Positions 1-47,784 are shown, numbered from the stretch's first letter. The stretch is DNA of 64,000 nt from Methanotrichaceae archaeon (GCA_963803145.1 CAWDLW010000024.1:20272-84271), one strand, 5' to 3'. A program made the numbers and translations. Notes: generated by a model not told the origin, from the letters alone.

Positions 1-5
1 ACTAT

Positions 6-1965: not shown

Positions 1966-2173
1966 CTCCTCTTCGGGGGTTTCATTGTTGTCCTCCTGGC
2001 GTTTATGCTATCTGACATTTCTCGCTACCTCTCTGGAAATTCTTTACTTTTCCGAATCGTCCAGCAATAACACTGTCTAATGAAGCCGGAGCCCATAGCA
2101 TCAAACCAGCCGAAACCATCGACCAGTGTATCATATATTTGAGACGGCAGATATTTGACTATATTACCAATGG

Positions 2174-2791
2174 TTAAGCGCCACTCCTTCTCGCAATCTC
2201 CATCGGAAGATCAACCACAAAGCAGGCCGCATCAACCACATTCCCATCGCTTGTTGCAACAATATCCTTCGCAACCTTAAGATGATGATCTACATTCATT
2301 TCTGTCCTTGCTGTTCCTCGAATCCCTCGAAGTGACATCATCTCCCGGATATGAGCCGACAGGCTGCCGCTCATGGATATCTGCTGGTCAAGCAAAAAAT
2401 CGACTCTGGCAGGTTCTACAAGAGCCAGGAGATCGATGATCTCAGATAGTGCCTGATCGGTGATCTCGGACATCCTGTAACTTCTGAAGATACCCCTAAT
2501 ATCTCTAAGCAACCCATCATCGCATAAATAAACAGGGCAGCCCTCAAGAATGCTTTCAACTGTTATCAGGACGTTGTATCCGTCAATTAGTATTTCTTTT
2601 CCGTTCAGCGCCTCCAGAGAAACAAGCTTTGCCATGCGGGCGGATGCCTGAACCGTTGCTACTACAACTCTCACTAGCACAAACCTCTGCCATTCAGGCA
2701 GACGATAATGATCGGCGACAAAACGTATCGCAGACTCCTTTGGGTAGCCGCGACCCAAGAGGTGGCGTACATCCTCAGCAGCAAGCCTCAG
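2174..2791 (-). CDS. DUF434-domain protein (PIN/NYN-like fold); start probably CTG at 2791, or TTG at 2758
   Basis: AAEDVRHLLGRGYPKESAI..V.DHYRL and IDGYNVLIT..CDDG..RDIRG motifs; the conserved-looking N-terminus extends upstream of the ORF-track start. Confidence 0.75.
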   Translation of the reverse strand: MRLAAEDVRHLLGRGYPKESAIRFVADHYRLPEWQRFVLVRVVVATVQASARMAKLVSLEALNGKEILIDGYNVLITVESILEGCPVYLCDDGLLRDIRGIFRSYRMSEITDQALSEIIDLLALVEPARVDFLLDQQISMSGSLSAHIREMMSLRGIRGTARTEMNVDHHLKVAKDIVATSDGNVVDAACFVVDLPMEIARRSGA

Positions 2792-3321
2792 CCTTTCAGG
2801 CGATTCTGGACCGACGCTCTCACATCCTTATATATATCATGTCCATAGGAATCGATGGCTACGATCATCGGCCCAAGGTTTTCGGCCTCGAACTCCCACA
2901 GGGCTTCAGCCATGCCCAGCTCCTGCAAGTGTACTCTCTTGACCTTCAGCTGTCTGGCAGCTGCAGCGCCACAGCCTCCGGGATATGCCAGATAAACTGC
3001 CCTGCCTCGGAATGGTTCGCCAGGCAGGCCGCCTTTGCCTATTATCGCCTTAACTCCAAGGTTCAGGATTTCCTCCGTATAGCGCGCCATTCTGCCGCTT
3101 GTTGTCGGGCCTGCAGATAGAACTTGATCATTCTTTATTAAGGGGCCGCAATGATACAGAACAGCGCCTTCAAGAGAGATGGGGCTGCCTTTTGATCGAA
3201 GCAGAGCATGCGCTTTATCACGCGCAGTATAAACAGTGCCGCTGAGATAGACCACATCTCCAGAGCGAAGTGATTTTATATCCTCGATTGAGAAGGGCGT
3301 CTTCAGCCTGTGTTCTGTCAT
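2788..3321 (-). CDS. Class I fumarate hydratase / Fe-S hydro-lyase, beta subunit
   Basis: GTVYTARDKAH, YHCGP, AGPTTSGRM, IGKGG; overlaps the alpha subunit stop (ATGA). Confidence 0.9.
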   Translation of the reverse strand: MTEHRLKTPFSIEDIKSLRSGDVVYLSGTVYTARDKAHALLRSKGSPISLEGAVLYHCGPLIKNDQVLSAGPTTSGRMARYTEEILNLGVKAIIGKGGLPGEPFRGRAVYLAYPGGCGAAAARQLKVKRVHLQELGMAEALWEFEAENLGPMIVAIDSYGHDIYKDVRASVQNRLKG

Positions 3322-4130
3322 CGGATCAACTCTGATGCGCTTCTATTGGCCCAGCACTGGAAGTTTATGGCTACGGGCAGCGAGGCAGTATGGCACGATG
3401 CCATTTCAATCTTTACGCCCAAAGCCGTTGTATCCCCGCCCAAGCCCATTGGACCGATCCCCAAAGCATTGATCTTTTTAAGAAGCTCAATCTCCCGCTC
3501 TGATGATCCCGGCATATTGAAGAGAGCTCGCTTTGCCAGACGTGCAGCCAGATCGAACGTCCCTCCTATTCCGATGCCCAGAAAAAGCGGCGGGCAGGCG
3601 TTGGCAGCGCGCTCTGCCACTGCTTTTAGAATGAATTCAAACGAATCATCAGCCGGATTCAGCATTCCAACAAGGCTCATATTCTCCGAGCCAGCACCTT
3701 TTGGAAAGGCCGTGATCTTCAAGCAGTTTCCATCAACTGATTCCATAATTATGTCAGGCATTATAATGCCCGTATTATCTCCCGTATTCTTTCGGGTCAG
3801 AGGATCAACTACATTGGGCCTTAGCGGAATTTCTTTTGTAGCAATCCTTACGCCCTCTGCAATAGCATTCTGTAAATCAAAGTCTAACCTGAGATCTCGT
3901 CCGACATCCAGATGGAATATCGGCAAACCGGTATCCTGGCAGAGAGGAAGCTTTGTCTCCTCAGCTATGTGGACGTTCTCAAGCATAAACTGAAGGTGGG
4001 ATCTTGCCACAGGGTTAGTCTCATTTTCCATAGCATGCTCGATCAGTTCTAAGACCCAATTTGGAAGCGATGTCTCAGCCTTCTGGAGCGTACGGATGGT
4101 TGCCTCTACAACCTCCGATTTTGACATCAT
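3318..4130 (-). CDS. Class I fumarate hydratase / Fe-S hydro-lyase, alpha subunit
   Basis: PLCQDTG, PKGAGSEN, ACPP, GIGPMGLGG.TT, CHTASLPVA..CWA. Confidence 0.9.
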   Translation of the reverse strand: MMSKSEVVEATIRTLQKAETSLPNWVLELIEHAMENETNPVARSHLQFMLENVHIAEETKLPLCQDTGLPIFHLDVGRDLRLDFDLQNAIAEGVRIATKEIPLRPNVVDPLTRKNTGDNTGIIMPDIIMESVDGNCLKITAFPKGAGSENMSLVGMLNPADDSFEFILKAVAERAANACPPLFLGIGIGGTFDLAARLAKRALFNMPGSSEREIELLKKINALGIGPMGLGGDTTALGVKIEMASCHTASLPVAINFQCWANRSASELIR

Positions 4131-5651: not shown

Positions 5652-7049
5652 CTGTACTCTCCAAGTTTCTCACCAATTTATAATCTCCATTCTATATCAA
5701 GTCATATCTTATATCCCTGTTCTTTGATTAGATAGAGTAAACCACTATCAGGAACTGGCAAATTAAAGTATTGTAATACATATATAAAGGCATCAATGAA
5801 TGCTTGAGCCTTTATACTATCTATCATATCTCCAATCGTTCTATTTTGTTGATTTCTTTCCACTGGTGGGTTTTTGAGTTCATATAAAACGATAGCTGTC
5901 CAGACTGAGAAAACCATCTGAATAAATCTTTCAATTGATCGTTTTCCTCTTAATTGATAATCCTTGAATCCCAATTTTTGATTTGACTCTCTATGAGCAG
6001 TCTCAATATCCCACCTATCCTCATAAATAGAAAGGATTTCTACCAAAGATAGTGAACAATTGGTGCTAATAAAGTAGTTGGCGTCACCATTTTTCTTTTT
6101 CTTTGAGATGACTAGCTTTACTTTGCCAATCTTATCTAAGATGACTTCTTTTTCGATTGCATAATATACCTTCTTCTTGCCGCGAACTTGGACTGTAGTT
6201 CTTCTATAATAAATTTCGTCAATCTGATTTGCCAAGTCCCTGACCTGAAAGGACATATCCTTATTTATCCATACCTTTTTATTAGACTTAATTTCACAAA
6301 CGACTTGATGACCTAAGTTCAGGCATTTAGTTATAAAATCAGCAGAAAACCACCAGCTGTCGAAAACAACATAAAGACTCAAGCCTTTTGGTATTTTTAA
6401 GGGCTCGATGATATCTTTATAAGCGATTTCTATTTTAGTCATGAAATCTTCACTGCTGTCTATCTCTTTAGTATACATTTTTGCTTTATGTGGTATAAAT
6501 ATACCTCTAGATTGGAGGACTGAGGTAACAAAGTTGTTACCCATAATATAGTCATCTTTGCAATGATCGTAAAACTTGCCCACGCCATCAGTACATTTCC
6601 CTTCCTTTTCATTATATGTATCGTCTATAATTAATAATATTTTGTCGCTTGCACTTAACTGAAGAGCTTCTATAAATAGATCCGCACTGCGCTGAGCTAC
6701 TTCGTTCTCATCCCAGATTGCATCACTAAAGAACCAATTATAGGAAGAGCGTGATTTCGTACATTCTCGATCCTTTGCCATAGCATCACTAAGGTGTGCG
6801 ATGGTCTTAGATTTATCACATACGCTCAGTGCTGAAATCATATCACAGAAAGAATTATAGCTCGGTATGGTGAATAAATCTTTAAATTCTTTTAGAAATG
6901 GCTCTAACTGTAATGGAATCTTAACTAATTTGATCATGACATAGTAAAATACTTTTATAAATAAATCTATTTTGTATCAAGAATTAATTTTAATGGTAAA
7001 AGAAAATATAGCTATAAATATAAAGCTATGAAAAAGTTGGAGAGTACAG
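5652..7049 (-). mobile_element. IS701-like insertion sequence, complete
   Basis: Imperfect TIRs CTGTACTCTCCAAGTTTCTCA (from 5652) and its near-complement TGAAAAAGTTGGAGAGTACAG (ending 7049); 7-bp direct repeat TTATGTA at 5645-5651 and 7050-7056; AT-rich interior. Confidence 0.88.
5702..6937 (-). CDS. DDE transposase (IS701/IS4-superfamily type)
   Basis: LIIDDT..EK.G, VVFDSWWF, Y..RWDIE..HRESNQKLG. Confidence 0.9.
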   Translation of the reverse strand: MIKLVKIPLQLEPFLKEFKDLFTIPSYNSFCDMISALSVCDKSKTIAHLSDAMAKDRECTKSRSSYNWFFSDAIWDENEVAQRSADLFIEALQLSASDKILLIIDDTYNEKEGKCTDGVGKFYDHCKDDYIMGNNFVTSVLQSRGIFIPHKAKMYTKEIDSSEDFMTKIEIAYKDIIEPLKIPKGLSLYVVFDSWWFSADFITKCLNLGHQVVCEIKSNKKVWINKDMSFQVRDLANQIDEIYYRRTTVQVRGKKKVYYAIEKEVILDKIGKVKLVISKKKKNGDANYFISTNCSLSLVEILSIYEDRWDIETAHRESNQKLGFKDYQLRGKRSIERFIQMVFSVWTAIVLYELKNPPVERNQQNRTIGDMIDSIKAQAFIDAFIYVLQYFNLPVPDSGLLYLIKEQGYKI

Positions 7050-11527: not shown

Positions 11528-12568
11528 ATGGAGGCCAGCCGTAAGTTCGATATCGCTGCCGTAGCAATAGTATTCCTGGTATTCATCGCCACGGTTTATC
11601 TAACAAAGGACTTCCTATCGACGATCTTGCTAAGCATTGTCATGACATTTCTTCTTAAGCCGGTCTATGCGAGATTGCTTCGGCTTACAAGGCAGCGGCA
11701 GATCTCATCGTTTCTTGCCATTCTTGTGGTATTCATTATAATTCTGGCTGTACTTTTGGGCATGACTAGTGTGCTTCTGATAGAGATATCGAACCTCCAA
11801 AAATCAGGAGATATTGCAGATATCACCGTAACCAATCTCTCTCAAGATCTCAATAAGTGGATGGAGACAAATCTCCCCGCGCCAGTATCGGGATACATAA
11901 AGGAAATAGGCGATATCCCTGCGACCATAGCCTCCTGGGCGCTTCCTATTATAGAGGCACAGCTATCGGGATTTGCATCCAACTTGCCGATATTATTTGC
12001 CCAATCGATCGTAGTAGTATTCTTTACTTACTATATACTCATTGACGGCAAATACTTTGTAAGAAAAGCAGTAGAGATTATGCCTAAAACGAGGATGGGA
12101 TTGGCTAGCCATTTCCTGCAGGAGCTGAACGCAATCTACACCACCCTTTTTACAGTTTACTTCACAACCTCGATGCTGAGCGGAATTCTGGCTGCGATCG
12201 GGTTCTTTCTGCTGGGGATACCTTATCCGCTGATCTGGGGAATCATCGTGGCCATCTTCACTCTAATACCTCTTCTTGGGCCACCTTTTGTGATCGTGCC
12301 CATTGCATTATATTATCTGCTGCTTAAGGATTATGCAATGGTGATTGCCCTAGTTGCCTTTGGAATTATTGCGCTCATGATCATACCGGAGAACGTCTTG
12401 CGACCGCAACTAGCGATAAGAAGCGCCAGAATCCATCCGATCGTCACAGTCCTTGCCTATACAGCACCAGTATTCGTTGTAGGGCTCATGGGGGTTATTA
12501 TCGGACCGGCCCTTTATGGGTTTCTTCTGGCGGTCTATAGGACAATTGTATATTATCGAGAGATCTAG
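11528..12568 (+). CDS. AI-2E (UPF0118) family transporter
   Basis: Multi-TM protein with FFTYYILIDG, LIPLLGP and ENVLRP...IHP motifs. Confidence 0.82.
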   Translation: MEASRKFDIAAVAIVFLVFIATVYLTKDFLSTILLSIVMTFLLKPVYARLLRLTRQRQISSFLAILVVFIIILAVLLGMTSVLLIEISNLQKSGDIADITVTNLSQDLNKWMETNLPAPVSGYIKEIGDIPATIASWALPIIEAQLSGFASNLPILFAQSIVVVFFTYYILIDGKYFVRKAVEIMPKTRMGLASHFLQELNAIYTTLFTVYFTTSMLSGILAAIGFFLLGIPYPLIWGIIVAIFTLIPLLGPPFVIVPIALYYLLLKDYAMVIALVAFGIIALMIIPENVLRPQLAIRSARIHPIVTVLAYTAPVFVVGLMGVIIGPALYGFLLAVYRTIVYYREI

Positions 12569-14032: not shown

Positions 14033-14772
14033 AGATCACGCTTCTTGGAACAGGCGATGCCATAGGGACTCCCAAGATCGGCTGCAAATGTCCTGCCTGC
14101 ATGGATGCACTCCGTGGCGGAAGAAGCAGAAGGATGAGGTTCTCTGTTCTCGTTGAATCAGATGAGGACGAGGGAAGGGTGCTCGTGGATACGAGCCCGG
14201 ACCTCAGATGGCAGCTTCTGAAGAGAGATATAAGCTCAGTTGATGCAGTTATATGGACTCATGCACATTATGATCATTATGCAGGCTTTGGAGACTTTCA
14301 CCGCGTTCAGAGCCATGTGGATGTTTTTGCATTGAAGGATACAATGGATTATATCCTAAACTACCTCTACTTTCTGAAACCAATGCGCCACGATGTGCTG
14401 GCTTATGAGCCATTTGAGATTGCTGGAATGGAGTTCACTCTTTTTAAGGTAAATCACCCTCCAACAGAAACTGCTGGGGCTCTCATAACTAATGGATGTA
14501 AAAAAGTTGTTATAACCAGCGATACCAATCTCGATATTCCACAGGAGAGCCTGGATCTTATAAAGAATGCCGACCTGATGCTGGCAGATGCCATAATGCC
14601 CCCCGGCTACAATCTAAATAAGCACATGAATGCTGAGGAGGCAGTTTGCCTTGCCAGGAATTTGGGCGTAAAGGATCTCAGGCTCACTCACTTAAGCCAT
14701 CTTTATCCTCCGCATGAAATAGCCCTCAAGACCTGGCCTCTGGGCCACGATATGATGGAGATTGTCTTGTGA
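14029..14772 (+). CDS. MBL-fold metallo-hydrolase (PhnP-like)
   Basis: LLGTG..GTPKIGCKCPAC, THAHYDH, THLSH; ATGA overlap with the ATPase. Confidence 0.88.
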   Translation: MKITLLGTGDAIGTPKIGCKCPACMDALRGGRSRRMRFSVLVESDEDEGRVLVDTSPDLRWQLLKRDISSVDAVIWTHAHYDHYAGFGDFHRVQSHVDVFALKDTMDYILNYLYFLKPMRHDVLAYEPFEIAGMEFTLFKVNHPPTETAGALITNGCKKVVITSDTNLDIPQESLDLIKNADLMLADAIMPPGYNLNKHMNAEEAVCLARNLGVKDLRLTHLSHLYPPHEIALKTWPLGHDMMEIVL

Positions 14773-16326
14773 GCCTTTTCCGGATATTATCATTATCCGT
14801 TGCGTTCGTTCTTTTATTTCTCACAATCTCTGTTTTATCATCATCGCCTTCAGCCCATTCAAATAGCCTATCCGAATCAGAGTATAGGGGCAGTGGGCTA
14901 TCCCTGGAATATCCTGAAGATTGGATTGTGACGGCTTTTGGGAAAAGCCCATGCGGAAACCTGAGCATGCGGTCTCATGATGCATACATTTTCCTCACTT
15001 GGGTACGAGATCCAGGGGTTGAGCCGGAGAAGGTACTTGATCAAATAGATAAGACCTATAGTGGTGATGAAATAAAGATCATCTCATCGACGCATAGTCG
15101 AATGAGGATAAATGGTGAGAATGCTTCCGTCCTTGATCTTTATTACACAATGGGAAAATATGGCTCAAGGAAACGTTTTGCAGTCTGGAACTCAAGCGTG
15201 TCCGATAGGCTATTCTTCGCCACACTATCAAGCAGCAGCGAGAGCTACGACCTGAGCACCTTAGCCTTCAATCATATGCTTGAAACGTTCTCAGATGTGC
15301 GAGATAGAAGGGCAACAGCACTCAAGCAAAGGACTGTAAAGGGCGATGCTTGGGGCATTGTGCTTGAAGATCTGCTTGCAAGCTACAGCTATAAGGATAC
15401 GTCCACACTACTATCCAGGAAGGTGTATCTGGAAACTATGCATTCGCTAATGCCATCAAACGGGACTTATCAGCTCTCTTCAAGGGACCAAATAAAAGTC
15501 GATCCCCAGTTAGCGGCAGCTTCCAGGGCTGCCGCGGTGCAAGATCTGCTCAATCAAAAAGGCTATGAGACCAGGCTGATCCAGAGAGGCGGAAATATCT
15601 GGGTTGCTGCTCGGGATACCGCGGGCAGCTGGCAGCTTGTATCCTTGAACCCTAGGGAGCCTGGGAAGATGATAGGCGTCCCAATATATGATGGAGAGGA
15701 GGGCATAGTTTATACGGATATTTCAGACCTGGCTGAAGACAACCTAATGGATCTGGGCAATAGTATTACTAATAATAGCATCCAGAGCAGCCAGATCATA
15801 CGCAAAGATTGCGAGCCCTCCAGGTACGTTGAACTCAGAGAGGCCATCCTCGGAAAATAAATCCTGGACCGAAAACTTGCAGAAGGTTCTTGATAGCTAC
15901 GATTATGGCCAGAGCTATCGGGAGAACGTCTTCGACTGCTCAAATACTTCTCAGATATGCTGGTCGATTCTGCAGGGTAAGGGATACGATGCCAGGCTTA
16001 TGATGAGCTATAAGGGCCATCCGCTTGATCCCCATATGTGGGTCGTGGTGCGATATCCATACGAGGCTGAGAGATATGTGGCTATTGAGGCTACGAACAC
16101 GGATAAGAGCAAGAAGCTGATTCATCTTGGGATGATCACGATGAAAGATGACTACTATAAGGGTATAATGTACAATACCAGTGCGCAGTTTTCCTGGCTG
16201 CATCCTGAGGAAGGGAATCGTCAGCAGCTTATTATCGAGAATATAATACAAGAGTATAATTTTAAAACATTTAAAATTAGATGTTTAAGATTGTTTTTAT
16301 TCTTGCTTTGCCCTCTTCAGAGCTGA
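14769..16326 (+). pseudogene. Exported protein with a C-terminal transglutaminase/papain-like Cys-His-Glu domain, split by a frameshift near 15838 (ORFs 14769-15860 and 15829-16326)
   Basis: Signal peptide; ORF2 has FDCSN..HMWV..IEAT; ORF1 has a degenerate copy (LLASYSY..KGYETRL..IWV); the frames join if one base is removed at CTCAGAGAGG. Confidence 0.6.
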
Positions 16327-17901
16327 GCATCTTCTCCAGCTCATTTCTTACTAGCTCTCCGATCTGCGCCTGATCGATAATATGGCTTTGGCTTATGAGT
16401 TCATCCTTTTTGTCTACGAACACCGTCTCATGTTCTCCAAATATCCTAATAGGCTCGACAAAGAATGGTTTCTGCCCGTCTCTTAGCCGTTTTTGGGAGG
16501 CTTCCAATTTATATTTTAAGCCGTTGGTTCCGTAAAAGTAGTTCCTCAATGCTTTTTTGGTTATCTCTGTATAGCCATGGACTCCTAAGATATTGTTCTC
16601 ATTCCTGTCAATGTACTTTATTGCTTCATTTATTATGCTGTAAATACGATTTTCGAAGGTGCCCTCGATATTATAGCTCTCTGTATCGCCTCCATATGGA
16701 TTCCTCAGCAAAATCAGGATATCATTTAAATTGCCGTCACCTATCTTGCGGTAAACTATTATTTTATCTTCAGAAAGCCCTGTATATTCACAAACTGCAT
16801 CTACTATTTTGCCTGCACTAAGAAATCCTCTTACAAAAACAAATGCCCTCTCCGCTTTAGTGGGATTACAATTGAAGAGTCTTCCATCTTTATCCAGAGA
16901 TTATTTACCAGAAGTTCTTCAGTCGAGCTTTTCTTGGAATAATAGCAGGGAATCAGTATAGGAGGAAATAGCTGTCCATTACCTTCATTTGGGCTACCGT
17001 TCATAGTACCCAAGAAAGCGCGCTGAATGCCAAGCACTTCATCCTGCTGCTCGGCACCGGGATAATTCCTCAAATCGATGAGCGGCTTCATGGCATCGTA
17101 AATTGATCTGTTTATAGCCGCATAGTTATCTCCGAATTTATCGATCAGTATCTGGTTATCAATCATAATCAGGCTATCGATGCCTGTCCCTGCCTCCTTA
17201 GTCAACAGATCGTACATAGCAATTACGGCGCCAAGATCCCTCTGTCCTTCCTCAGTGTTCTTACGATCTGTCCCTTTTTCTGTCAGAATACCTAATGCAA
17301 ATATAGGAAACTTCAGTTCCTCTGCCCGTACAGAGCTGGTAATGGGGTTTATGAAGCCGGTTCCTGTTCCTCCTCCAAGAGAAGCTATGAAAAGTATGCT
17401 ATCGCAAAGTTTCAGTTGCCGAGTTTTATTTACTTCATCTGGTTTTATAGATAAAGTAGTGAAAGACCGAATGCCCTGCCGCCAGATGTAGCCGGCAAGC
17501 GGATTCTTTTCTCCTTTAAACTCGTCAGTTGCTATGGATTGTAAATCTTCATCGGTCTCAAAGATCTCAAAGATGCCCTTAAGATATTCTGCACGTCTAT
17601 CATAGCCTGAAGCCTTGAGATCAAAGCCATATTTGTTAGTTACATAATCCTTAGTTTTAGAGTGATCTTCTATGCCCCCATGGCAGATTAGATAAAAAGG
17701 ATAGTTGCCGCTGGTAAGACTACTATAGAAAGGATTATCCTGGACTTCATGGCTTGCAGAATCAAGCCAAATGCCTTTAACATCTCCAAAAGCCAAATAT
17801 CCTCCAAAAGAGAACTTAGGTAGATAGGCATCTTGGCTTTGGAGTAACTGCGTTAGGATGTTACCTCCAGTGCCACCTATCCCAACAACATATGGTCTCA
17901 A
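16277..17901 (-). CDS. Divergent tubulin/FtsZ-superfamily GTPase (CetZ-like), ~540 aa, with a single frameshift near 16901
   Basis: TTG start overlapping the upstream stop; YVVGIGGTGGN (T1), SLGGGTGTG (T4 signature), IMIDNQ (T6). The shifted frame reads SLDKDGRLFNCNPTKAERAFVFVRG and runs without a stop into ORF 16277-16711. Confidence 0.85.
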
Positions 17902-18482
17902 TGTAAATCCCTCACGAAGCCGGAAAATACAGGCAACAATAACATAATCTGGGATGCAATCAGAGTCAAATATCCTAAGTTCCAAAAACTATTATCCTTG
18001 AGGGGATATATAGTGCCAATGTAGATGGAAATTGATATTGAGATAACTAGTAATAAAGGCACAAAGTATACGATGATGTTTTTCAGAGCCCTAGGAATTA
18101 CATAATATCCATAGATTCTCGGAATGCTGAAGGCAAGTAGGCCAGTGAGCAATATTACAGCAGCACCAAGGATAATTAGACCAAATTCATAGGACGCAGC
18201 TGCAGGAATTTGGAAGTAATTCCAGTTCTCGAAAATAGTGGGAGTCAGAAAGTATAGAAATACTAAAGCTACAAAGAATAGGCTCCAGGATGAGAGTAGT
18301 ACGGTGTTGAAGTTGGAGCCCTGAGAGATATGAAGCGCCTTTTTTAGATCATTAATTTCAACATTGCTGGATACTATCTTATTTAGCCTTGCCCTGATCA
18401 TATTCAGGTATGCAAAATGCAGGAGCCCCCCTAACAACATAATGCCAGCCAAGATGGCCAGAAGTTCTATCTCATACATCAT
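17898..18482 (-). CDS. Integral membrane protein (~5 TM helices) coupled to the tubulin-like gene
   Basis: Hydrophobic segments throughout; 4-bp overlaps with both neighbours. Confidence 0.8.
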   Translation of the reverse strand: MMYEIELLAILAGIMLLGGLLHFAYLNMIRARLNKIVSSNVEINDLKKALHISQGSNFNTVLLSSWSLFFVALVFLYFLTPTIFENWNYFQIPAAASYEFGLIILGAAVILLTGLLAFSIPRIYGYYVIPRALKNIIVYFVPLLLVISISISIYIGTIYPLKDNSFWNLGYLTLIASQIMLLLPVFSGFVRDLH

Positions 18483-19978
18483 CTGTAGAACCTCCTCTCG
18501 ACGAATATGCCTGCTAAAATGGCGACTATAACGATCGCCAGAAGGTTGCCCACTGCCTGGATTGAGGCTAGTTCATAGCTGATCAGCTTTGAGTTTATTT
18601 GTTTGGGCCCGTCAAACCACGTGGACTCGTACTTTCCATATTGATCAGGAGATGTATAAGTGAAGTAGTAGTGGAATGGCTGGTTGCGGTCTGCCACATT
18701 GAAAGGCTCTATATCTTCAAAGAGGATGTCTGTGTAATTAGACCCCGAGATATGTTCCGATTGAGATGATACCGGCTTTTTCGGGGACGAAGGAGTATCC
18801 GTATAAAGGGTAACAGTCACAGTATCTCCCTCGTTGTTCTGGCTTTTCATGCCGAGCCCAAAGGTGTATTTCTGCCACCAGTAGTAGTTATCGCTTTCAG
18901 GCCGGATCATCGGATTGCTGACTCTTATCTTAGAGATGGGTCTCAGGACTGGACCAGACATAACTTCACTCCATGTGGTATTCTCTCCACCGATCACTCC
19001 ATCGGTACATGAATAACGGTAGCTGAAGTTCTTACCTGCATCGCTCTCGTCAAATATGCCTTTATCTTTAGTGCTGAAGATAATAGGATCGCCCACAAGG
19101 AACGGCTTCGTGATATTGTTTATCTCTGTATCGTTTAAGAGGATGTGAAGTGTAACCTGATTGATATTCTGTTGGCCCTTATCTGCTGAAGATACCAGAG
19201 GCGTGCTAGTATGATCATCCTCCAATGATGCTGTATATTGGATAAAGTCGTCCCATCTCGCGGGATTTGGGCTGACTTCCATACTGCTATTGTTTACTCT
19301 AGGCGGTATGTTGTATACACTCATATTAAGTTCGCCATAGCACCCGTCTTTAGGAAAGTCCTTCTGTATACTAGAGTAATAGTTATACTGCCCATCTGAG
19401 ACTTTGATCCTTAATTTTGCATCTCCTACCTTTTTGAGATAGCCAAAAGATTCGAGATCTGGAAAGATCCTCATAGTGGCATTGGTCTTTTCATCGTACT
19501 CATTCACTTGTATTATCTGAGTGCCTGTCTTGGCAGGTTTGAATTCCTTCTCTCCGGGCTCCTGTATCTCCAGATCAAGGAAAAGGGCTCTCCTAATTTC
19601 TATAGGGTTTTGGTTAGAAATCACAGCGCCAATCTTTATATTTTCATCTCTAGATACTGTGGTATTATTCGTAGGCGGGTAATATACCCACACCGCGGGA
19701 GGAATGTATTTCTGTGTAGTAAACGGTTCCTTATATAGCAGCTTTTTAAGGTAATCAAACTTATCCGGGTAGTTATTCTTCCAGCCTTCAACCTGCCGGA
19801 TGAAGTTATCTATATCTGGCGATCTCGGACTTCCACCATCACTGCTTCGAGATACTGATGGCGATGGCGGAGAGATATCTATGCTGGGACCTTGGCCCCC
19901 GTCCTGACCTGAGGCCAAATGGCCTAAAAGTGAAGCTGCATATAATAGTATGAACCCTATCAGAAGAGCCCTTTTCAT
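18479..19978 (-). CDS. Exported protein with beta-rich repeats and a C-terminal membrane anchor
   Basis: Signal peptide MKRALLIGFILL..; repeats VSPNPARWDDFIQYTASL and IRPESDNYYWWQKYTF; C-terminal TM followed by ERRFYR; many NxS/T sites. Confidence 0.8.
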   Translation of the reverse strand: MKRALLIGFILLYAASLLGHLASGQDGGQGPSIDISPPSPSVSRSSDGGSPRSPDIDNFIRQVEGWKNNYPDKFDYLKKLLYKEPFTTQKYIPPAVWVYYPPTNNTTVSRDENIKIGAVISNQNPIEIRRALFLDLEIQEPGEKEFKPAKTGTQIIQVNEYDEKTNATMRIFPDLESFGYLKKVGDAKLRIKVSDGQYNYYSSIQKDFPKDGCYGELNMSVYNIPPRVNNSSMEVSPNPARWDDFIQYTASLEDDHTSTPLVSSADKGQQNINQVTLHILLNDTEINNITKPFLVGDPIIFSTKDKGIFDESDAGKNFSYRYSCTDGVIGGENTTWSEVMSGPVLRPISKIRVSNPMIRPESDNYYWWQKYTFGLGMKSQNNEGDTVTVTLYTDTPSSPKKPVSSQSEHISGSNYTDILFEDIEPFNVADRNQPFHYYFTYTSPDQYGKYESTWFDGPKQINSKLISYELASIQAVGNLLAIVIVAILAGIFVERRFYR

Positions 19979-19979
19979 A

Positions 19980-21621
19980 CTATGCCCTCATGACATCAAA
20001 CCGAACCGTTTTGTGCCAAGGCTGATTTTTCCACACAAGCTCCTTCCATTCCTGGGTATCGGATTTATACTCTTGGATGAGATTCGATCTTGTCCAGACC
20101 AATCCATCATTGGTATAAATAAGCTCGATTTTCAAGCTGGGCTCAGGTGATCTTACGGTGACTTTATAATCGAAGCGAGGAGTATTAAGTATAGAGACAT
20201 ATGTCATATTTTTAAACGCTACATCTATATTGGGACCCGTGAACTCTCCTAAGACTGAGTTGTCTGCAACAAATCTATATCTGCCGCTTCCAATTGCTTC
20301 TGCAAAGCTAGGATCAAAGCTGATGCCTGCCCAAGTAAGGGTATTGTTATCGCCATTATAGGTAACGGTGCCCCTATCTGTCCACATATCGCATCTTGGT
20401 GGAGCGGTCTGAAGTTTAACATCGAAACGCGGCTCCCTAGATTCTACCTGTACTGAATAGGTATATGGCGTAAAGATCGTGCCGTTCCTGGGCAGAACAG
20501 TCCAGTTTTTCAGAGCTATCGGAGCCAGGCTCGGCCCGGGATAATATCTCCCAGTACCCTTATATGTGGTTGTTACAGGCACCTCCGCATCCTTATAATA
20601 ACAGCTGAAAAAGTAATTGGACTCCCCTTTTGCGTCTGTTGTGGAGGAAGGTCGGATACCATTCCATGTCAGAGTCTTCCATTGGCTTACATTTTCATAA
20701 CTCAATCTCCCGGCGGAATTATAATTCCCACTGCTCACATCTAGAACATTCAGCTCGACATCGATTGCCTTTGATGAGTTTATATCGATGCTATATGTGA
20801 AGGGCGTATCTGAAGTTCCGTTCTCTGGAGTAACACTGCTGTTCCGATACGCTATTGCAATAGGCCAAAATGGTCCCTGAAAGATCTCTGAATTCGTTCT
20901 TCCTGCGAACTTAAAGTAAGCTATATTGAAGTTGAAGCCCAAAGTTTTATTATCCCATCTTAGAGTTTGGAGTGTATTTGGCGTTGCATATTCTTTGCTT
21001 CCTAGATCGGTCCAAGGACCATTCATCGGAGGGCCCGACAAGAAGGCTTAGTTATCCCATAGCTCCCATAAGACAGTCACTTCGTAGCTATACTGATCCT
21101 CATTGTTGCCTTGTGCTGGATCAACCATTGGGCTCATAAATTCAAAGAAAGGCTTGCATAGTTGAGGATGCCCTTCATAATTCTCAAGTGTGATGCTTTT
21201 CCCAAAAGAGGAGATATGGTTGCACGATACCAAGCATTATCCCAGATACTAGTATCATTTTTATTTTGGACCCAAGTTTTGAAATCGCCTCTGGATAAAT
21301 CTGGAGAGCGGAAGTTTACGTCGAATGTAGTGTAAGTCGTTGAATGAGGATTTACGTTTACACTTTGTGCATCAAATCTTTTGAATACATCTGGATTATT
21401 TATGTCAGAATCCCACATCAAGATTTACAGTGTAAAGCATGTTATAATTAATACCATTATTAATAGGAACAATATAATTGACAGTACTTATTTACATCAA
21501 ACGGTTCTTTATTTAAGCCTGATTGCGCGAAGGAAATTGCATCTTGAGCATTGGAAAGAGGCATGACTAGCAGCAATAAAAGCAACAAAACGTGCATCAG
21601 CGCCGACCAAGAAGAGCCCAT
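19980..21621 (-). pseudogene. Exported repeat protein (~545 aa if intact); 5' third broken by several single-base indels
   Basis: ATG 21621 gives signal peptide MGSSWSALMHVLLLLLLLVMPLSNAQD; fragments 21134-21421, 21048-21233 and 19980-21041 lie in successive frames and share the VxPxxG....(Y/F)xY repeat. Confidence 0.7.
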
Positions 21622-21745
21622 TTTAATTACCACCCTACATATGTGGTAGAATAGGAAAAGTTAGCCTTAATAAGCCTTTGCATTAGAGCTTCCTTAAGGC
21701 TAAAACTATTTGAAAATAGCTGCATTATTCTCTGCGATAATCAAG

Positions 21746-23665: not shown

Positions 23666-24349
23666 TCACAGCCGGATGTCGTTAACTGTTATCGTGTTGA
23701 AGGGATACTGAGTATCCACGTAGATGACATCGCCCGTATCATAGATTCCCCAGCCGCCGTTGTTTATGTTTCCATTGGCGTTATAGAAGCTAAGCATTCC
23801 TGGAAGTGTGGTAGTTGGCTTATCGCTATCTAAATCGGAGTCCCTCACTCTGCTTCCGGGAGGATATATCATCGGACCATCCAAGGGATAGCCAGTTATC
23901 CTGATGTCGCCTGCGCTCACTATTCCCGGATTGAGGTCAAGGTATACTGGATCTATGATGCTGTAGGACTTGTCGCCATCCATATCGAAGAACCTCAGCT
24001 CTGCAGCAGGGTAACGATATGTTCCAAATCTTATCAGAGTTTTATCGTGGTCAGGATCTACTGCATTTACCTGACTCCCTGGTTGAAAAGATCCAAAAGG
24101 AGTAACTCTTACATCGTCTTCGCTCACTGTTCCGTCAGCGGAATTTATGTTTATGTAGACAGGATCAGTCGGCTCGAATATGCCATTATCATTTAAGTCT
24201 ATGAAGGCGAACTCAGGTCCAGCATAAAATGGGCTGAGAGCCTTGGCCTCATCAGAATCGCCTAACACTACCTTAGATCCGTATTCCTGTGCGATAGCTG
24301 GCGCTGATAGCAAAAATGCCAGCAGAAGGATTTTACAGATGGATTTCAT
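23666..24349 (-). CDS. Exported protein with repeated Ca-binding-like DxDxxG loops
   Basis: Signal peptide; repeats DLNDNG..DPVY, DMDGDK..DPVY and NANGN..DVIY, each followed by D(V/I)R; paralog at 59860. Confidence 0.75.
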   Translation of the reverse strand: MKSICKILLLAFLLSAPAIAQEYGSKVVLGDSDEAKALSPFYAGPEFAFIDLNDNGIFEPTDPVYININSADGTVSEDDVRVTPFGSFQPGSQVNAVDPDHDKTLIRFGTYRYPAAELRFFDMDGDKSYSIIDPVYLDLNPGIVSAGDIRITGYPLDGPMIYPPGSRVRDSDLDSDKPTTTLPGMLSFYNANGNINNGGWGIYDTGDVIYVDTQYPFNTITVNDIRL

Positions 24350-24560: not shown

Positions 24561-24635
24561 AGCGGGGTAGGGTAGTCAGGATATCCCGACGGGCTCATAA
24601 CCCGTAGATCAGTAGTTCAAATCTACTCCCCGCTA
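24561..24635 (+). tRNA. Initiator tRNA-Met (CAT)
   Basis: Acceptor stem AGCGGGG/CCCCGCT with A1-U72; anticodon arm ACGGG-CTCATAA-CCCGT with three G-C pairs; T arm AGTAG-TTCAAAT-CTACT; CCA not encoded. Confidence 0.95.
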
Positions 24636-28450: not shown

Positions 28451-29697
28451 CCCCTCTTCGTGACCTACCAGGAATGTATAGCCTTTTTTCCGATATTTAG
28501 AGAATTCGCTAAAGAAACTAACTTTGTAGCTAAGAAAACTATTGGGACAACCTTTTTTTCGACACTAGGCTGTGTATATTGATGTATTTTGTTCAATCCT
28601 AAGGTATTTTTAGCTATATTGAAGAAAACTTCTATTTCAAGCCTATAATACTTAAAACTCTTCCATTGATAGATTAAATTCTTAAATTCGTTAACAATAT
28701 GAATCCATTTTTCTAATTTATATTTATTGTGAGAAAATGCATCTAAAGGCGGATTAAGTTCGTAAATTATTTGATCTAAATTGGTGTTATTCCTTGGATA
28801 AATAATCGGAATCAAGTAAAATTGATTGATTAACGCATGATAATTCTTTTTTGACGTAAAGCCTTTATCACAGATGATTAAATCGCCTGAATGTATTTTT
28901 CTTGAATTGAAAAGCCTTTCTACAAAAGGAATAAGTATTTTTGAATCATTAGGACAATCTTTATGAATTTCAAATCCAATAAGATTATCATCAAGATCTA
29001 TAGCCAAAATTAACTTAAATCCTACGAAATAGCCTATGGAAGGGTAATAAGACCATTTATATTTTTTATTCTTCTTACCTATTTTATCCTTGTTTCTCCA
29101 AATATTAAGGTCAATTACGATTGGAGAGGTATCAATAATTATAGTTCTTTGCTTTTTATCTCTTTTACGGCGTTCAGACTGGAATGTTTTGCTAAAAAAA
29201 TGGAACAATGAGTCATAACTTAAATCAAACATAGATTTATAGACTTTTTGCGCATTTATCGTTGAATCAATATCCAATAGCTTTTGTAACTCTGAATTCA
29301 TATTTATTTCTGAAATTATAGAGGAAATATCTCTTTCAAACAAGCTTGATAGGACTATAATTTTTATTGCTAATACGAAATTATCTATATCATATATTTT
29401 TAACTTGGATGCAATTTTCCTAGATCGCTGAGATCCGATAATTTCAAGTATTTTGAGCACTATTATCCCTTTTGGGTGCTTATAATTAGGAATCAGAGGA
29501 GATAACATCAATAATACCTTCCTTTGGTGGTGCAACCTAGTTATAAGCGCCCAAATTACTTAAAATTAACTATTGAAAGTTTAATTCCAGATCAAATCAA
29601 GACCCATAATTTGTTTTCTAATCGAAGTTAAAATTTCTAAGTAAATTTAAATTAAATTGATAGAATTAGTTTGTTTTAAAGAGAGTTTGAAGAGGGG
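28451..29697 (-). mobile_element. Insertion sequence (IS4/IS5-superfamily DDE type)
   Basis: Ends CCCCTCTTC (28451) / GAAGAGGGG (to 29697), each flanked by TA; very AT-rich interior. Confidence 0.75.
28465..29508 (-). CDS. DDE transposase
   Basis: IIIDTS, GFKL, ND, ICDKGF, R..IE.FF..AK..L; ATG 29508 follows AAGGAAGG. Confidence 0.85.
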   Translation of the reverse strand: MLSPLIPNYKHPKGIIVLKILEIIGSQRSRKIASKLKIYDIDNFVLAIKIIVLSSLFERDISSIISEINMNSELQKLLDIDSTINAQKVYKSMFDLSYDSLFHFFSKTFQSERRKRDKKQRTIIIDTSPIVIDLNIWRNKDKIGKKNKKYKWSYYPSIGYFVGFKLILAIDLDDNLIGFEIHKDCPNDSKILIPFVERLFNSRKIHSGDLIICDKGFTSKKNYHALINQFYLIPIIYPRNNTNLDQIIYELNPPLDAFSHNKYKLEKWIHIVNEFKNLIYQWKSFKYYRLEIEVFFNIAKNTLGLNKIHQYTQPSVEKKVVPIVFLATKLVSLANSLNIGKKAIHSW

Positions 29698-29824: not shown

Positions 29825-31705
29825 CTATCGATCATCTTTGAACAAAAGCTTCATCTCATATATCCCGGATTCATTTTGTTTCTTAATATCAAATCCCATC
29901 TTATTGAAGAGTCTGAAGACCGGCTGGTTTCCTATAAGAACTTCTGCTGTGAATCCTATGAGACCATTTCTCTTGGCTAAGTGAGTGAGTTCCGAGATTA
30001 ACTCTGTTCCTACTCCCTGTTTCTGGTATTGATCCCCAACAACGAGCGCAATATCCGCTGTATCCATATCTCTGTTTAAGCTGTACTGTCCAATGCCGGT
30101 TATGGTTTCTTTGCCGGACTCACCCAGAACTGCCAAAATAGTAAGCTTCTGGGTATAATCTATTACCACGAATTTCTGTAGCGTCTCGTGAGGTATGTCT
30201 CTTCGGGCAGAAATAAACCTTTGATACATGCTTTCATCCGACAAAGAATAGAAGAAATCCTTGAGCATAGGCTCATCGCTGATCTTCACCGGCCGGAGAA
30301 CTATCTCAAGTCCAGTTTTAGTGATCCTTCGAGTCTCCAGCTCTTCTGGGTACTCTCCCTTAATCCCGGCAATAAATGCCTGATCCTTGAATATCAGTGA
30401 GAGCTTCTTGGCTTCTTCTATGAGCCAGGGCCTGAACATCGGATGCGCTATTGCTATCAAATCCATAGCCCTCTCACGGATGCATCTGCCATGGAGGTAA
30501 GCTATCCCGAACTCCGTAACTACGTAATGAATATCGCCTCTAGTCAGAGTGACGCCAGCCCCCTCTTTTAGGAACGGCACAATTCTTGATACGCTTCCGT
30601 TGTCGGCAGTTGAAGGCAATGCCAGGATTGTTTTCCCTCCCGGTGCGAGCACAGCGCCTCTCATAAAGTCGGCCTGTCCTCCGATACCGCTGTAGAACAT
30701 TTTGCCTATAGATTCGGCCGTGGCTTGGCCGGTCAGATCAACCTCCAGGGCGCTGTTTATTGCCGTCATGCGCTTATTTTGGGCTATAATTAGAGGATTG
30801 TTAGTATAATCAATAGTCCTGAACTCAATTGATGGGTTATCATCGATAAAGTCATAGGTCTCCTTCTTTCCCATACAAAAGGTGGCAATGGTCTTTCCTG
30901 GATTAATGGACTTCTCTGTATTGTCTACAACGCCATTCCTCATTAGCTCGACAATACCGTCATTCAGGAGTTCAGTATGTATTCCCAAATGCTTTTTGTC
31001 TCCAAAACATGAGGCGATTGCATTTGGTATGCTTCCATATCCCATCTGAATCGTTGAACCGTCTTCAATTATACTTGAGACATGGCTTCCAATTCTCTGA
31101 GCTGTATCATCAGGAACATGCTCTATGTATTCAAGCAACGGCTCATCATGGGGCACGATGAAATCTACGTTCTCGATATCTACCTTGCCATCTCCCTGAA
31201 CATGCGGCATATTGGAATTTGCCTGAGCTATAACCAGAGCTGCTTTTTCAATCGCCGATTTGACAATATCTACACTTACTCCCAGGTTCATCTCTCCATT
31301 TTTATCCGGAGGCGTCGTCTGGATTAAAGCTACATCAATCCCAAACCGATCCGTACGGATTAAATCAGGAACCGCAGATAAAAATATAGGCGTGTAATCT
31401 GCTACACCTCTATTTATCGCCTTTCGAGTGCTATCCCCAATGAAAAAAGATCTCAATCTGAAGTTATCCCTGAACTTTTCATCTGTATAGGGAGCGACAC
31501 CAAGGGTTACAATGTTTATCAGCTCAGCATCCAGGAATGCCTTGGGATTTTTATCGATATAGCTTAATAACGCTTGAACGAGATATTGAGGTTCACCGCA
31601 GCCTGTACCTATGAATATTTTGTTCCCGGGGTGAATCTCCTGGAATACGAAGCGTTCAGCCTTGAACTTTCCAGGCCAATTCTTTTTGATTTCGTCCCAA
31701 TCCAT
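29825..31705 (-). CDS. Acetyl-CoA hydrolase/CoA-transferase-family domain fused to a C-terminal Pat-type GNAT acetyltransferase (paralog A)
   Basis: GCGEP, LGVSVD, GIHTE, INSALEVDLTGQ, SGIGGQADF, YVVTEFG, IAHP; GNAT part LRPV..DE...FF.SLS.ES.Y.RF and YQKQGVG. Confidence 0.88.
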   Translation of the reverse strand: MDWDEIKKNWPGKFKAERFVFQEIHPGNKIFIGTGCGEPQYLVQALLSYIDKNPKAFLDAELINIVTLGVAPYTDEKFRDNFRLRSFFIGDSTRKAINRGVADYTPIFLSAVPDLIRTDRFGIDVALIQTTPPDKNGEMNLGVSVDIVKSAIEKAALVIAQANSNMPHVQGDGKVDIENVDFIVPHDEPLLEYIEHVPDDTAQRIGSHVSSIIEDGSTIQMGYGSIPNAIASCFGDKKHLGIHTELLNDGIVELMRNGVVDNTEKSINPGKTIATFCMGKKETYDFIDDNPSIEFRTIDYTNNPLIIAQNKRMTAINSALEVDLTGQATAESIGKMFYSGIGGQADFMRGAVLAPGGKTILALPSTADNGSVSRIVPFLKEGAGVTLTRGDIHYVVTEFGIAYLHGRCIRERAMDLIAIAHPMFRPWLIEEAKKLSLIFKDQAFIAGIKGEYPEELETRRITKTGLEIVLRPVKISDEPMLKDFFYSLSDESMYQRFISARRDIPHETLQKFVVIDYTQKLTILAVLGESGKETITGIGQYSLNRDMDTADIALVVGDQYQKQGVGTELISELTHLAKRNGLIGFTAEVLIGNQPVFRLFNKMGFDIKKQNESGIYEMKLLFKDDR

Positions 31706-31829: not shown

Positions 31830-33821
31830 CTATTTGGTGATGAGCGGTATGTTGTGCACAGATTCCGGGTTAGCCAGAGCAGACAGATCGCCGGTCTCCT
31901 TGCCCAGAGCTTTCGCCTTAATGACACGGCGCATGATCTTGCCTGACCTTGTCTTGGGTACATCCTTGACGAAGAAGACCCGGTCGGGATATGCTACAGG
32001 GCCGAGCACCTTGCGGACATGAGTGGAGATATCTTTCTTCAGGTCCTCGCTCTCCTGGATACCTTCCTTGAGTATGACGAAGGCGACGATCTTCTCGCCC
32101 TTGACCTCATCGGGCTCGCCTATGACTGCTGCCTCTGCGACCTTCGGGTGGGACACAGCTGCTGATTCGACTTCAGCGTTGGAGATTCTATGTCCAGCCA
32201 CCTTCAGCACATCGTCGATTCTGCCCTGAATCCACCAGTAGCCATCCTTGTCTCTGGTGGCCTTATCGCCTGCAAGGTACGTTCCTGGCTTTGTCTGCCA
32301 GTACATCTCCCAGTACTCCTTCTTGTACCTGACCTCATCTCTGAAGAATGCACGGAGCATGCTTGGCCAGGGGGTCTTATTGACGATGTTTCCACCGAAG
32401 CCCAGCGGGACGGAGTTGGCATTCTCATCAAAGATATCGGTGTTGAATCCGGGCAGAGGGAATGCTACCGATCCGGGCTTCTCAGGCGTCATGGGAAGCG
32501 GGGCTATGACATGGCATCCTGTTTCGGTCTGCCACCAGGTATCCATAATGGGTGCCTGATCTGCGCCGATATTCTTTCTGAACCAGATGTATGCCTCGGG
32601 GTTAAGCGGTTCGCCCACGGATGCCAGAATCCTGATGGAGGACAGATCGTACTTCTTGACGTACTCCTCACCTGTTTTCATGAACATCCTAATGGCCGTA
32701 GGTGCCGTATAAAATACAGAGACACCATATTGCTCAATGATGGACCACCATCGGCCCAGGTCTGGGAAGTCCGGAGAGCCCTCGTATAGGATGCTACTTG
32801 CGCCAAGGGAAAGCGGGCCGTAGACAACATAGCTGTGTCCTGTGATCCAGCCTGCATCGGCTGTACACCAGTAGACATCGTCCTCGTGGATATCCAGAAC
32901 CCAGGAGCAGGTTTGAGCAGGGCCTACAGCGTATCCGCCGTGGACGTGCTCGATACCCTTGGGCTTGCCAGTTGTGCCCGAGGTGTACAGAATGAACAGC
33001 CTATCCTCTGGATCGAGCTGAGCGGTCTCACACTGGGCGGACTGTTCTTTTACAGCCTCATCATAGTAGATATCGCGGCCTTCTGTCATGGGGATCTGCT
33101 GGCCTGTTCTTCTCACAACTAATACTTTCTTTACAGAGGGTGCAGTCTTGAGGGCCTCATCCACATTGGGTTTGAGAGGAAGAGGTTTGCCGCGCCTGTA
33201 GAAGCCGTCGGAGGTAACGACCACTTTGGCCTCGGCATCATTGACCCTGCTGTTCAAGCCGCCGGAAGAAAATCCGGAGAAGACCACTGTATGAATGGCA
33301 CCAATCTTGGCGCAGGCCAGCATTGTGATAGGTAACTCTGGAATCATGGGGAGGTAGCAGACTACTCTGTCGCCCTTCTCGACGCCCAGTCTCTTGAGGG
33401 CGTTAGCGAGCTTGTTGACCTCGCGGTAGAGCTCATAATAAGTAATGGTTCTGGTATCTCCCAGGGGCTCCCCTATGAAGTAGTATGCAACCTTGTTCCG
33501 CTTTGCTGAGCGCGCATGTCTATCAACGGCATTGTAGGCAGCGTTGATCCTGCCGCCCATGAACCACTTGTAGTAAGGCTTGTCTGACTCATCGAGGATC
33601 TGGGTGTAAGGCTGGTACCAATCTGCATATGTCTGGGCCATCTCATCCCAGAAGTCTACGTAATTTGCGGAGCACCACTCACGCATCTCTTTCTCAGTCT
33701 TGAAGCCTTTCTTCTTCATCCATTGATATACGTTGGAATGCTCAATAATCCATTGCGGCGTGTTGAAAATTCTGGTCTCTTCTTGGAGAACAGACGTTTT
33801 TGCTGTGTCGGCTGATCTCAT
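31830..33821 (-). CDS. acs: AMP-forming acetyl-CoA synthetase
   Basis: [57 protein letters not shown]; alternative start 33836. Confidence 0.96.
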
Positions 33822-33824
33822 GAG

Positions 33825-33932
33825 ATAACATAACATGTTATGGTATATTAGGATTTCGCCATCTCTTCAATCAATTATGATCAGGGCTGGACGAATGCTT
33901 TATCAATCTCATATCATGGTATACTATAATAT
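33825..33932. promoter_or_regulatory. Divergent acs/RHH promoter region with two 22-bp imperfect palindromes
   Basis: ATAACATAACATGTTATGGTAT (33825-33846, one mismatched pair) and ATATCATGGTATACTATAATAT (33911-33932, two mismatched pairs); both contain ATGGTAT. Confidence 0.5.
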
Positions 33933-47772: not shown

Positions 47773-47784
47773 TTTTATAGGCTC

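Follow-up and report, generated by a model that had tools for sequence, protein, structure and literature searches.

Analysis of a 64,000-nucleotide stretch of DNA from a Methanotrichaceae archaeon (GCA_963803145.1, CAWDLW010000024.1:20272-84271; this whole stretch is referred to below as the window) revealed four consecutive minus-strand genes at 16277-21621 that encode, in order, a secreted repeat protein (gene 1), a related exported protein with a C-terminal transmembrane anchor (gene 2), a membrane protein with five hydrophobic segments (gene 3), and a putative divergent GTPase of the tubulin superfamily (gene 4). All four are real genes under purifying selection in the Methanotrichaceae lineage. 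The reading favored here, tentatively and with somewhat less than even confidence, is that they form a vertically inherited operon of this family and that their products are parts of one membrane-spanning assembly.

The genes are as tightly coupled as a first-pass annotation, made from the sequence alone, had claimed, and the anatomy that it described (a tubulin-like GTPase, a five-transmembrane protein, an anchored exported protein and a related secreted protein) proved to be real. Gene 1 (19980-21621) is separated by a single base pair, at 19979, from gene 2 (18479-19978), which overlaps gene 3 (17898-18482) by the 4 nt ATGA (18479-18482); gene 3 in turn overlaps gene 4 (16277-17901, about 541 codons) by the 4 nt TTGA (17898-17901), the start codon of gene 4 being the TTG at 17901. 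A Shine-Dalgarno-like GGTGGT is found about 9 nt ahead of the gene 1 ATG, and the 124-bp intergenic region 5' of gene 1 (21622-21745, minus strand) presumably contains the promoter and leader of the operon. Genes 2 (499 aa) and 3 (194 aa) are the only intact open reading frames (ORFs) of the operon in the window. Three-frame translation and alignment to a relative showed that gene 1 is disrupted, and a 1-nt deletion at about 16900 splits gene 4 into an N-terminal piece (16900-17901) and a C-terminal piece (16280-16897).

A scan of species-representative genomes, which detects close relatives only, yielded 70 pattern matches for examination, two of which encode a relative. Both are Methanotrichaceae metagenome-assembled genomes, designated L001 and L002, with GTPases that are 83% and 43% identical, respectively, to that of the window. 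All four genes are intact in both, in the same order as in the window, and in all three genomes the operon is placed after genes for RNase HII and a class-V aminotransferase. The junctions in L001 (proteins of 546, 499, 207 and 543 aa for genes 1-4) consist of a 1-bp gap and two 4-nt overlaps, while those in L002 (671, 478, 227 and 514 aa) consist of three 4-nt overlaps, given probable start codons chosen to match the N-termini of the orthologues; start/stop overlaps with neighboring genes are kept down to 43% GTPase identity. Conservation of the gene order, proposed in the first-pass annotation as a check, was therefore borne out in both of the relatives found, with overlapping start and stop codons and intact genes. 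Because L001 and L002 carry four intact genes in order, the locus is not a decayed remnant in all relatives, and the neighbors of the GTPase gene are co-conserved within these three genomes.

When the window is compared with L001, the ratio of nonsynonymous to synonymous substitution rates (dN/dS) is 0.25 over the 5' part of gene 1 and 0.10 over its 3' part, 0.14 in gene 2 and 0.22 in gene 3. The two pieces of gene 4 give 0.14 and 0.13, and three housekeeping neighbors give 0.02-0.08. Because the values lie at 0.10-0.25 for every gene or part, it was concluded that purifying selection has acted on all four genes.

The product of gene 4 is, as judged from its sequence, a member of the tubulin superfamily at the edge of detection. 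The motifs that had been noted in this protein of about 540 aa (VVGIGGTGGN, GGGTGTG and IDN) were all found in its translation, and the T1 (GIGGxGG) and T4 (GGGTGTG) loops are present in all three sequences and align to T1 and T4 of FtsZ. Alignments by phmmer, hhalign and MAFFT all set the T6 asparagine, within (I/M)DNQ, against IPN(D/Q) of FtsZ. The MAFFT alignment with FtsZ brings T1, T4 and T6 into register, together with the beginning of T7 (YPG vs. RPG), and shows about 70 additional residues inserted after H1 in the gene 4 protein. The Pfam Tubulin profile (PF00091) matched the N-terminal piece with an E-value of 3.6e-9 (37.6 bits vs. a cutoff of 33), the match being confined to the second half of the profile (positions ~95-187). 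A comparison with Escherichia coli FtsZ by hhalign gave a probability of 73% over 85 columns, from H3 to just beyond the T6 asparagine, with the alignment ending at T6 and not reaching the C-terminal domain. The Pfam E-value and the hhalign probability together argue that the tubulin match did not arise by chance.

Placement within the superfamily is less definite. The best match to the GTPase in a single-sequence search of solved structures had an E-value of 0.0019; in a profile search, Asgard tubulin and FtsZ came out at 0.016, two CetZ chains at 0.034 and 0.93, and beta-tubulin at 0.09-0.15, such that no subfamily among CetZ, FtsZ and tubulin is preferred. In an AlphaFold2 model of low confidence (mean predicted local distance difference test score, pLDDT, of 38.6), the order of strands and helices is compatible with the two-domain pattern of FtsZ and tubulin, which is a matter of consistency only, and about 130 residues of predicted helices lie C-terminal to the core (pLDDT 52-76 there). 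Foldseek searches with this poor model retrieved mostly FtsZ, tubulin, TubZ and CetZ chains and did not resolve the subfamily. In the ESM Atlas, the nearest entry is an archaeal cluster of 60 members (score 0.95), followed by a CetZ cluster (0.93) and viral tubulin-like clusters (0.90-0.92); the 60-member cluster is a lead, rather than a placement, suggesting that the GTPase family extends beyond three genomes. No paralogue of the GTPase was present in the 106 kb examined.

The first-pass annotation had also likened the GTPase's C-terminal domain to that of CetZ. The string on which it drew, GRLFNCNPTKAERAFVFVRG, is indeed present in the C-terminal part of gene 4, but the resemblance did not hold up in profile searches: the C-terminal piece from the window had no Pfam match to CetZ_C (PF21011) or FtsZ_C at E<=1, and the two intact orthologues had none to FtsZ_C, CetZ_C, TubZ-like_C or Tubulin_C at E<=10, a search in which the HMMER filters drop most weak matches. 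From the sequence comparisons as a whole, the protein appears to be neither an FtsZ orthologue, nor FtsZl1, nor TubZ, and to have no CetZ_C match.

Hydropathy analysis confirmed that gene 3 encodes a protein with five hydrophobic segments, in line with the earlier claim of about five transmembrane segments, and the same number is present in all three orthologues. The first loop, of about 35 residues, contains 5-8 Lys/Arg residues and a QGSNFN motif that is invariant in all three proteins. Because the positive-inside rule would place this Lys/Arg-rich loop in the cytoplasm, the topology is predicted to be N-out, C-in. Searches of Pfam, NCBIfam and PDB sequences found no match to the gene 3 protein. 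Prediction of a complex between the C-terminal extension of the GTPase (L001 residues 405-543) and the five-transmembrane protein scored 0.00 in both runs vs. a mark of 0.32, with an uncertain fold for the partner, a modeling result that counts neither for nor against binding. At the 5' end of gene 3, an in-frame 39-nt indel distinguishes the window (18440-18482) from L001 (9381-9424); the N-terminus is 13 residues longer in L001 than in the window, and longer still in L002.

The two remaining proteins carry export signals. Hydropathy analysis supported the signal peptide claimed for gene 1 and both the signal peptide and the C-terminal transmembrane segment claimed for gene 2. The gene 1 protein, which has a signal peptide only, comprises four immunoglobulin (Ig)- or fibronectin type III (FN3)-like repeats and, N-terminal to them, a domain of about 135 aa. 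The gene 2 protein has a signal peptide, a Ser/Pro/Gly-rich linker, a large ectodomain with at least two copies of the repeat that also occurs in gene 1, and a transmembrane anchor, after which a six-residue tail, ERR-x-YR, is kept in all three orthologues. N-glycosylation sequons occur at 1.8-2.4 per 100 aa in the products of genes 1 and 2 vs. 0.18 in the GTPase, which has no hydrophobic segment; these densities fit a location of the first two proteins outside the cell and of the GTPase inside it.

The repeat of about 100 aa is present in four units in gene 1 of L001 and in five in gene 1 of L002, and three of the four L001 units were recovered at E<=1e-5 in one phmmer round. A jackhmmer search seeded with the last gene 2 unit gathered the gene 1 and gene 2 proteins of all three genomes, six in total, but not one of 56 decoys (6 reversed sequences, 6 shuffled sequences and 44 other ORFs of the window), and therefore the two exported proteins are related, as had been claimed. 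The relationship emerged clearly only from the repeat; a full-length comparison of the gene 1 and gene 2 profiles was weak (probability 9.7%, E-value 0.0033). An AlphaFold2 model of the repeat, built from an 18-row alignment of units, has seven strands, a pLDDT of 92.2 and a predicted template modeling score (pTM) of 0.85. Foldseek found 22 matches to it in the PDB at E<=0.001, the best of them to FnIII-like domains in GH3 glycosidases (TMq 0.61-0.71), with Ig-like domains next. The repeat is thus modeled as a generic Ig/FN3-like beta-sandwich with no functional namesake. Neither protein matched a Pfam, NCBIfam or PDB-sequence family; sequence searches of solved structures gave best E-values of 0.6 for the repeat profile and 0.33 for gene 2, the ESM Atlas held no cluster at >=0.9 for gene 2, and no archaeosortase sorting motif (PGF-CTERM and the like) was detected in gene 2 with NCBIfam and Pfam profiles at E<=1.

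In the membrane-spanning assembly proposed here, the gene 4 product would be the cytoplasmic component, a divergent GTPase that is expected to bind GTP and to self-associate into filaments or rings. The conserved basic loop of the five-transmembrane protein, if cytoplasmic, could tether this GTPase to the membrane, within which the same protein might pair with the gene 2 anchor. The gene 2 product would be a type-I membrane glycoprotein of Ig/FN3-like domains, and the secreted gene 1 product, made of the same domain, might bind, extend or cap the gene 2 scaffold on the outside. Working from inside the cell, such an assembly would probably serve to place or organize a scaffold of Ig domains on the outside, for instance at the cell poles or division sites of a sheathed filament.

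Several observations weigh against this assembly. After YPG, a single acidic position is all that the three GTPase sequences have in common, and the hydrolysis-activating T7 motif is accordingly doubtful on sequence grounds; because this motif is not conserved, dynamic GTP-driven polymerization is uncertain. The intact orthologues fall below the Pfam Tubulin cutoff (29.4 and 32.6 bits vs. 33), and sequence comparison is unable to show that the C-terminal domain is homologous to the FtsZ/tubulin C-domain. The structural model of the GTPase, built from a four-row alignment, is poor, and the Foldseek matches to it were weak (best E-value 9e-4, TM 0.1-0.34). Conservation was seen in three related genomes of one family. 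Finally, two of the four operon genes are broken in the window, and the sequenced organism therefore apparently manages without them, if the sequence is correct.

This last point received too little weight in the first-pass annotation. Because genes 1 and 4 carry single-base indels, the window copy of these genes has been either recently inactivated or locally mis-assembled, and with two of four genes disrupted the copy may be inactive. Alignment of the operon region to L001 revealed 11 indels in all, four of which are multiples of three. The others comprise one single-base indel just 5' of the gene 1 start, five within gene 1 (near 21485, 21407, 21205, 21051 and 21025), and the deletion in gene 4. 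Gene 1 consequently lies in at least five frame pieces spread over three frames: a signal-peptide piece, three short conserved pieces, and then a 355-codon open stretch (19983-21047) that is the largest intact one. A further single-base indel, at about 15843, affects the convergent neighbor (14769-16326, plus strand). This gene encodes a signal-peptide protein that is split into 363 and 165 aa in the window and is intact, at 481 aa, in L001; its dN/dS against L001 is 0.18, and its C-terminal part has a sub-threshold, transglutaminase-like match to Transglut_core3 (E-value 0.015).

It is quite possible, if somewhat doubtful, that the six single-base indels within the operon genes and the seventh in the neighbor are assembly or sequencing errors and that this organism, too, has an intact and functional operon. 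Every frame piece of genes 1 and 4 still encodes conserved protein, and because dN/dS remains at 0.10-0.25, any inactivation would be very recent. Furthermore, the five gene 1 indels fall within its first 600 nt (P=0.0065 under a uniform spread along the gene), a cluster that could mark one poorly assembled stretch. On the other hand, all seven coding single-base indels are located in the operon or its convergent neighbor, with none in 6,150 nt of other aligned coding sequence (AI-2E transporter, AAA ATPase, metallo-beta-lactamase-fold protein, aminotransferase, RNase HII, HisA and HisB; P=0.011 under a uniform model). None of them lies within a long homopolymer, and three transposase ORFs in the window would fit a pseudogene-accumulating genome. 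The pattern as a whole favors either genuine decay of recent date or a single region in which the assembly is poor.

A different view of the GTPase, which we consider unlikely, is that it acts as a nucleotide-dependent membrane switch or assembly factor rather than as a polymer, for example by controlling the export, insertion or turnover of the Ig-repeat proteins via the five-transmembrane protein. A T7 loop with no conserved activating motif and a C-terminal domain that hidden Markov models fail to recognize would suit such a factor, and FtsZl1 offers a precedent for superfamily members whose filament formation is doubted, according to the available extracts of PMC2875224. The same extracts state, however, that all characterized members of the superfamily form filaments; in addition, the T1, T4 and T6 elements are present in the gene 4 protein, and the secondary-structure order of its low-confidence model matches the full FtsZ/tubulin two-domain pattern.

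A more ambitious extension of the membrane-spanning assembly, and a rather improbable one at present, is a tubulin-based trans-membrane machine specific to sheathed filamentous methanogens, in which a tubulin ring or filament would act from the cytoplasm via the five-transmembrane adaptor to position, and serve as a template for, an extracellular Ig-domain lattice. Such a lattice could be a spacer plug or cross-wall, new sheath hoops, or thin appendages. Thin appendages with no identifiable pilus genes have been reported in Methanotrichaceae in the sections available of PMC10598746, and therefore unexplained surface structures exist in this family, as far as that account goes.

It is very unlikely that the operon belongs to the FtsZl1-type membrane-remodeling or vesicle-forming systems (Makarova and Koonin 2010). 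A weak match to Tubulin_2 (PF13809), the FtsZl1 family, with E-values of 3.8e-4 to 0.01, and the membrane association of the operon partners are in keeping with such a system. The Tubulin_2 scores (20.3, 15.6 and 15.5 bits) are nevertheless below the cutoff of 27, and the match spans only 26-54 residues around T4. The T6 asparagine of the gene 4 protein aligns to that of FtsZ, whereas FtsZl1 is described, in the portion of PMC2875224 at hand, as having a coiled-coil and no identifiable T6-H7. A vWA-domain gene, three of which lie about 2 kb upstream of the operon in L002, might be counted in favor; however, none is found inside the operon in any of the three genomes, and those of L002 lie beyond two housekeeping genes and have no counterpart in the window or L001.

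These L002 genes (1-3849) are three tandem surface-protein genes with vWA and DUF11 domains, located just upstream of RNase HII on the same strand as the operon, and they recall the association of FtsZl1 with vWA proteins; nothing similar is present at the corresponding position in the window or L001.

That gene 4 is an ordinary CetZ or FtsZ paralogue beside unrelated envelope genes is highly improbable. The second rank of the CetZ cluster in the ESM Atlas (0.93) and the inclusion of a Methanosaeta CetZ structure (3zid) among the Foldseek matches to the poor model speak for it. However, the protein scored 26.9 bits against the NCBIfam FtsZ equivalog TIGR00065, the cutoff of which is 295.2, in agreement with the earlier view that it is not an ordinary FtsZ, and it had no CetZ_C match. 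CetZ structures in the PDB (E-values of 0.034-0.93) were no better than FtsZ or Asgard tubulin (0.016), and no preference for CetZ over FtsZ or tubulin emerged. At 514-543 aa, with about 70 aa inserted and the C-terminus extended by about 130 aa, the protein is also unlike an ordinary paralogue, and the 4-nt overlaps with neighboring genes that persist down to 43% identity argue that these neighbors are not incidental.

Base composition has a bearing on the origin of the operon. The block had been described as AT-rich, and it is modestly so in the window (42.2% GC vs. flanks of 46.0% and 48.1%, with similar values in L001). This is not a property of the operon as such, since the offset is reversed in L002 (56.3% vs. 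53.2% and 54.9%). Because the sign of the offset differs between genomes, AT-richness does not serve as a hint of foreign origin, and an origin of this kind was rejected on compositional grounds. The window is otherwise ordinary chromosome, with genes for acetyl-CoA synthetase, histidine biosynthesis and DNA ligase, as well as the three transposase ORFs; the operon is not mobile, and nothing points to a mobile element. An integrated chromosomal remnant of a TubZ/PhuZ-type plasmid or virus partition system is barely conceivable. The viral tubulin-like ESM Atlas clusters (0.90-0.92) and the GC content of the operon in the window, which is 4-6 points lower than that of the flanks, speak for one. 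However, tblastn of the GTPase found no match at E<=1 among 72,556 plasmid and 50,697 phage records, and three species share a single chromosomal position for the operon. The partners are transmembrane and exported proteins, no integrase or DNA-binding adaptor gene is present, the GC offset is reversed in L002, and the nearest tRNA is 3 kb away, within a blastn segment that aligns to L001.

Other features of the surroundings were noted. A tRNA-Met gene is located at 24561-24635 (plus strand), and 23666-24349 (minus strand), upstream of RNase HII, encodes a protein of 227 aa that has a signal peptide and falls into no known family. The gene after the GTPase is convergent in the window and L001, while in L002 a 191-aa gene (11574-12149, plus strand) follows the GTPase by 68 nt on the same strand; homology of its product to the neighbor in the window was unsupported (blastp E-value 0.29), and it gave a weak hint of a papain fold (E-value 0.17). 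The transposase ORFs, of the DDE type, lie at 5705-6937, 28468-29535 and 49638-50573 (all minus strand), each in a low-GC patch (31-41% vs. a window mean of 44.8%). Next to a transposase, where the GC content of the window is at its lowest (28-33% over these kilobases), 47119-49212 (minus strand) contains two ORFs (217 and 475 aa) that match no Pfam family, and may be a small foreign island. Finally, the acetyl-CoA synthetase gene (31830-33836, minus strand) is flanked by two paralogous genes (29825-31705 and 34284-36203, minus strand), both of which encode acetyl-CoA hydrolase/transferase domains fused to a GNAT acetyltransferase, with a small ribbon-helix-helix gene between.

Archaeal tubulin-superfamily proteins outside FtsZ and CetZ have been catalogued, but to our knowledge with neither partners nor functions, and we know of no assembly machinery for the sheath, plugs or filament growth of these organisms. 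Tubulin-superfamily modules are themselves already familiar, and what is new here is a set of partners for one. The operon provides a compact and testable parts list, in which a divergent tubulin is translationally coupled to a candidate adaptor and two surface Ig-domain proteins. If these parts cooperate, they would constitute a direct genetic link from an archaeal cytoskeletal GTPase to construction of the cell envelope. Furthermore, because the copy in the window is broken, lineages that do and do not have a working module can be set side by side as a natural comparison.

The first-pass annotation knew of no characterized system with this architecture, and literature searches, in sources available in part, likewise turned up no such four-gene arrangement and nothing joining Methanothrix, sheath and tubulin. 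Partial likenesses to several known systems can be drawn. CetZ proteins are archaeal tubulin-like proteins of cell shape, and they share with the gene 4 product the character of an archaeal cytoplasmic tubulin-superfamily GTPase, a helical C-terminal end and occurrence in the same class of organisms. The gene 4 protein differs in being about 150 aa longer, with its insert in the N-terminal domain and its C-terminal extension, in having no CetZ_C match, in being no closer to solved CetZ structures than to FtsZ or tubulin, and in being encoded in a fixed operon with transmembrane and Ig-repeat proteins. Some CetZ genes do adjoin surface-structure genes, the type IV pili regulons of Thermococcales among them, as described in the excerpts available of PMC9856176.

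The Halo.Tub and CetZ-like groups (Santana-Molina et al. 2023) comprise divergent tubulin-like proteins from Halobacterota whose phylogenetic position is unstable, according to part of the text of PMC9871819, and the "non-canonical TSF" proteins form a divergent archaeal group of the tubulin superfamily (TSF), according to the extracts of PMC9856176 (Brown and Duggin 2023). As far as these partial accounts (PMC9871819, PMC9856176) go, the gene 4 protein shares with them its divergence, an unrecognizable C-terminus and neighbors of unknown function, and by description it may belong to one of these groups. Halo.Tub genes, in the portion available of PMC9871819, occur as several quasi-tandem copies with coiled-coil neighbors, whereas gene 4 is a single copy in the 106 kb examined, with transmembrane and Ig-repeat neighbors.

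FtsZl1/Tubulin_2 systems, as portrayed in the sections at hand of PMC2875224, likewise feature a highly divergent tubulin GTPase whose gene shares a conserved operon with those of membrane-associated or secreted proteins, and a proposed action at the membrane. The partners listed there are vWA, P-loop GTPase, kinase and OmpA proteins, none of which is encoded in the gene 1-4 operon, and the gene 4 protein departs from the FtsZl1 described there, which lacks T6-H7 and has a coiled-coil, in possessing T6 and in its sub-cutoff Tubulin_2 score.

The closest parallel in logic, by analogy, is with FtsZ and its membrane anchors, which are SepF in archaea and FtsA and ZipA in bacteria. Both arrangements would place a tubulin-like polymer in the cytoplasm, a dedicated adaptor in or at the membrane, and envelope construction outside. 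The gene 4 protein is, by its sequence scores, not an FtsZ orthologue, and the candidate adaptor is a five-transmembrane protein of no known family. The extracellular parts, which are wall-synthesis enzymes in the FtsZ arrangement, would here be Ig-like repeat proteins.

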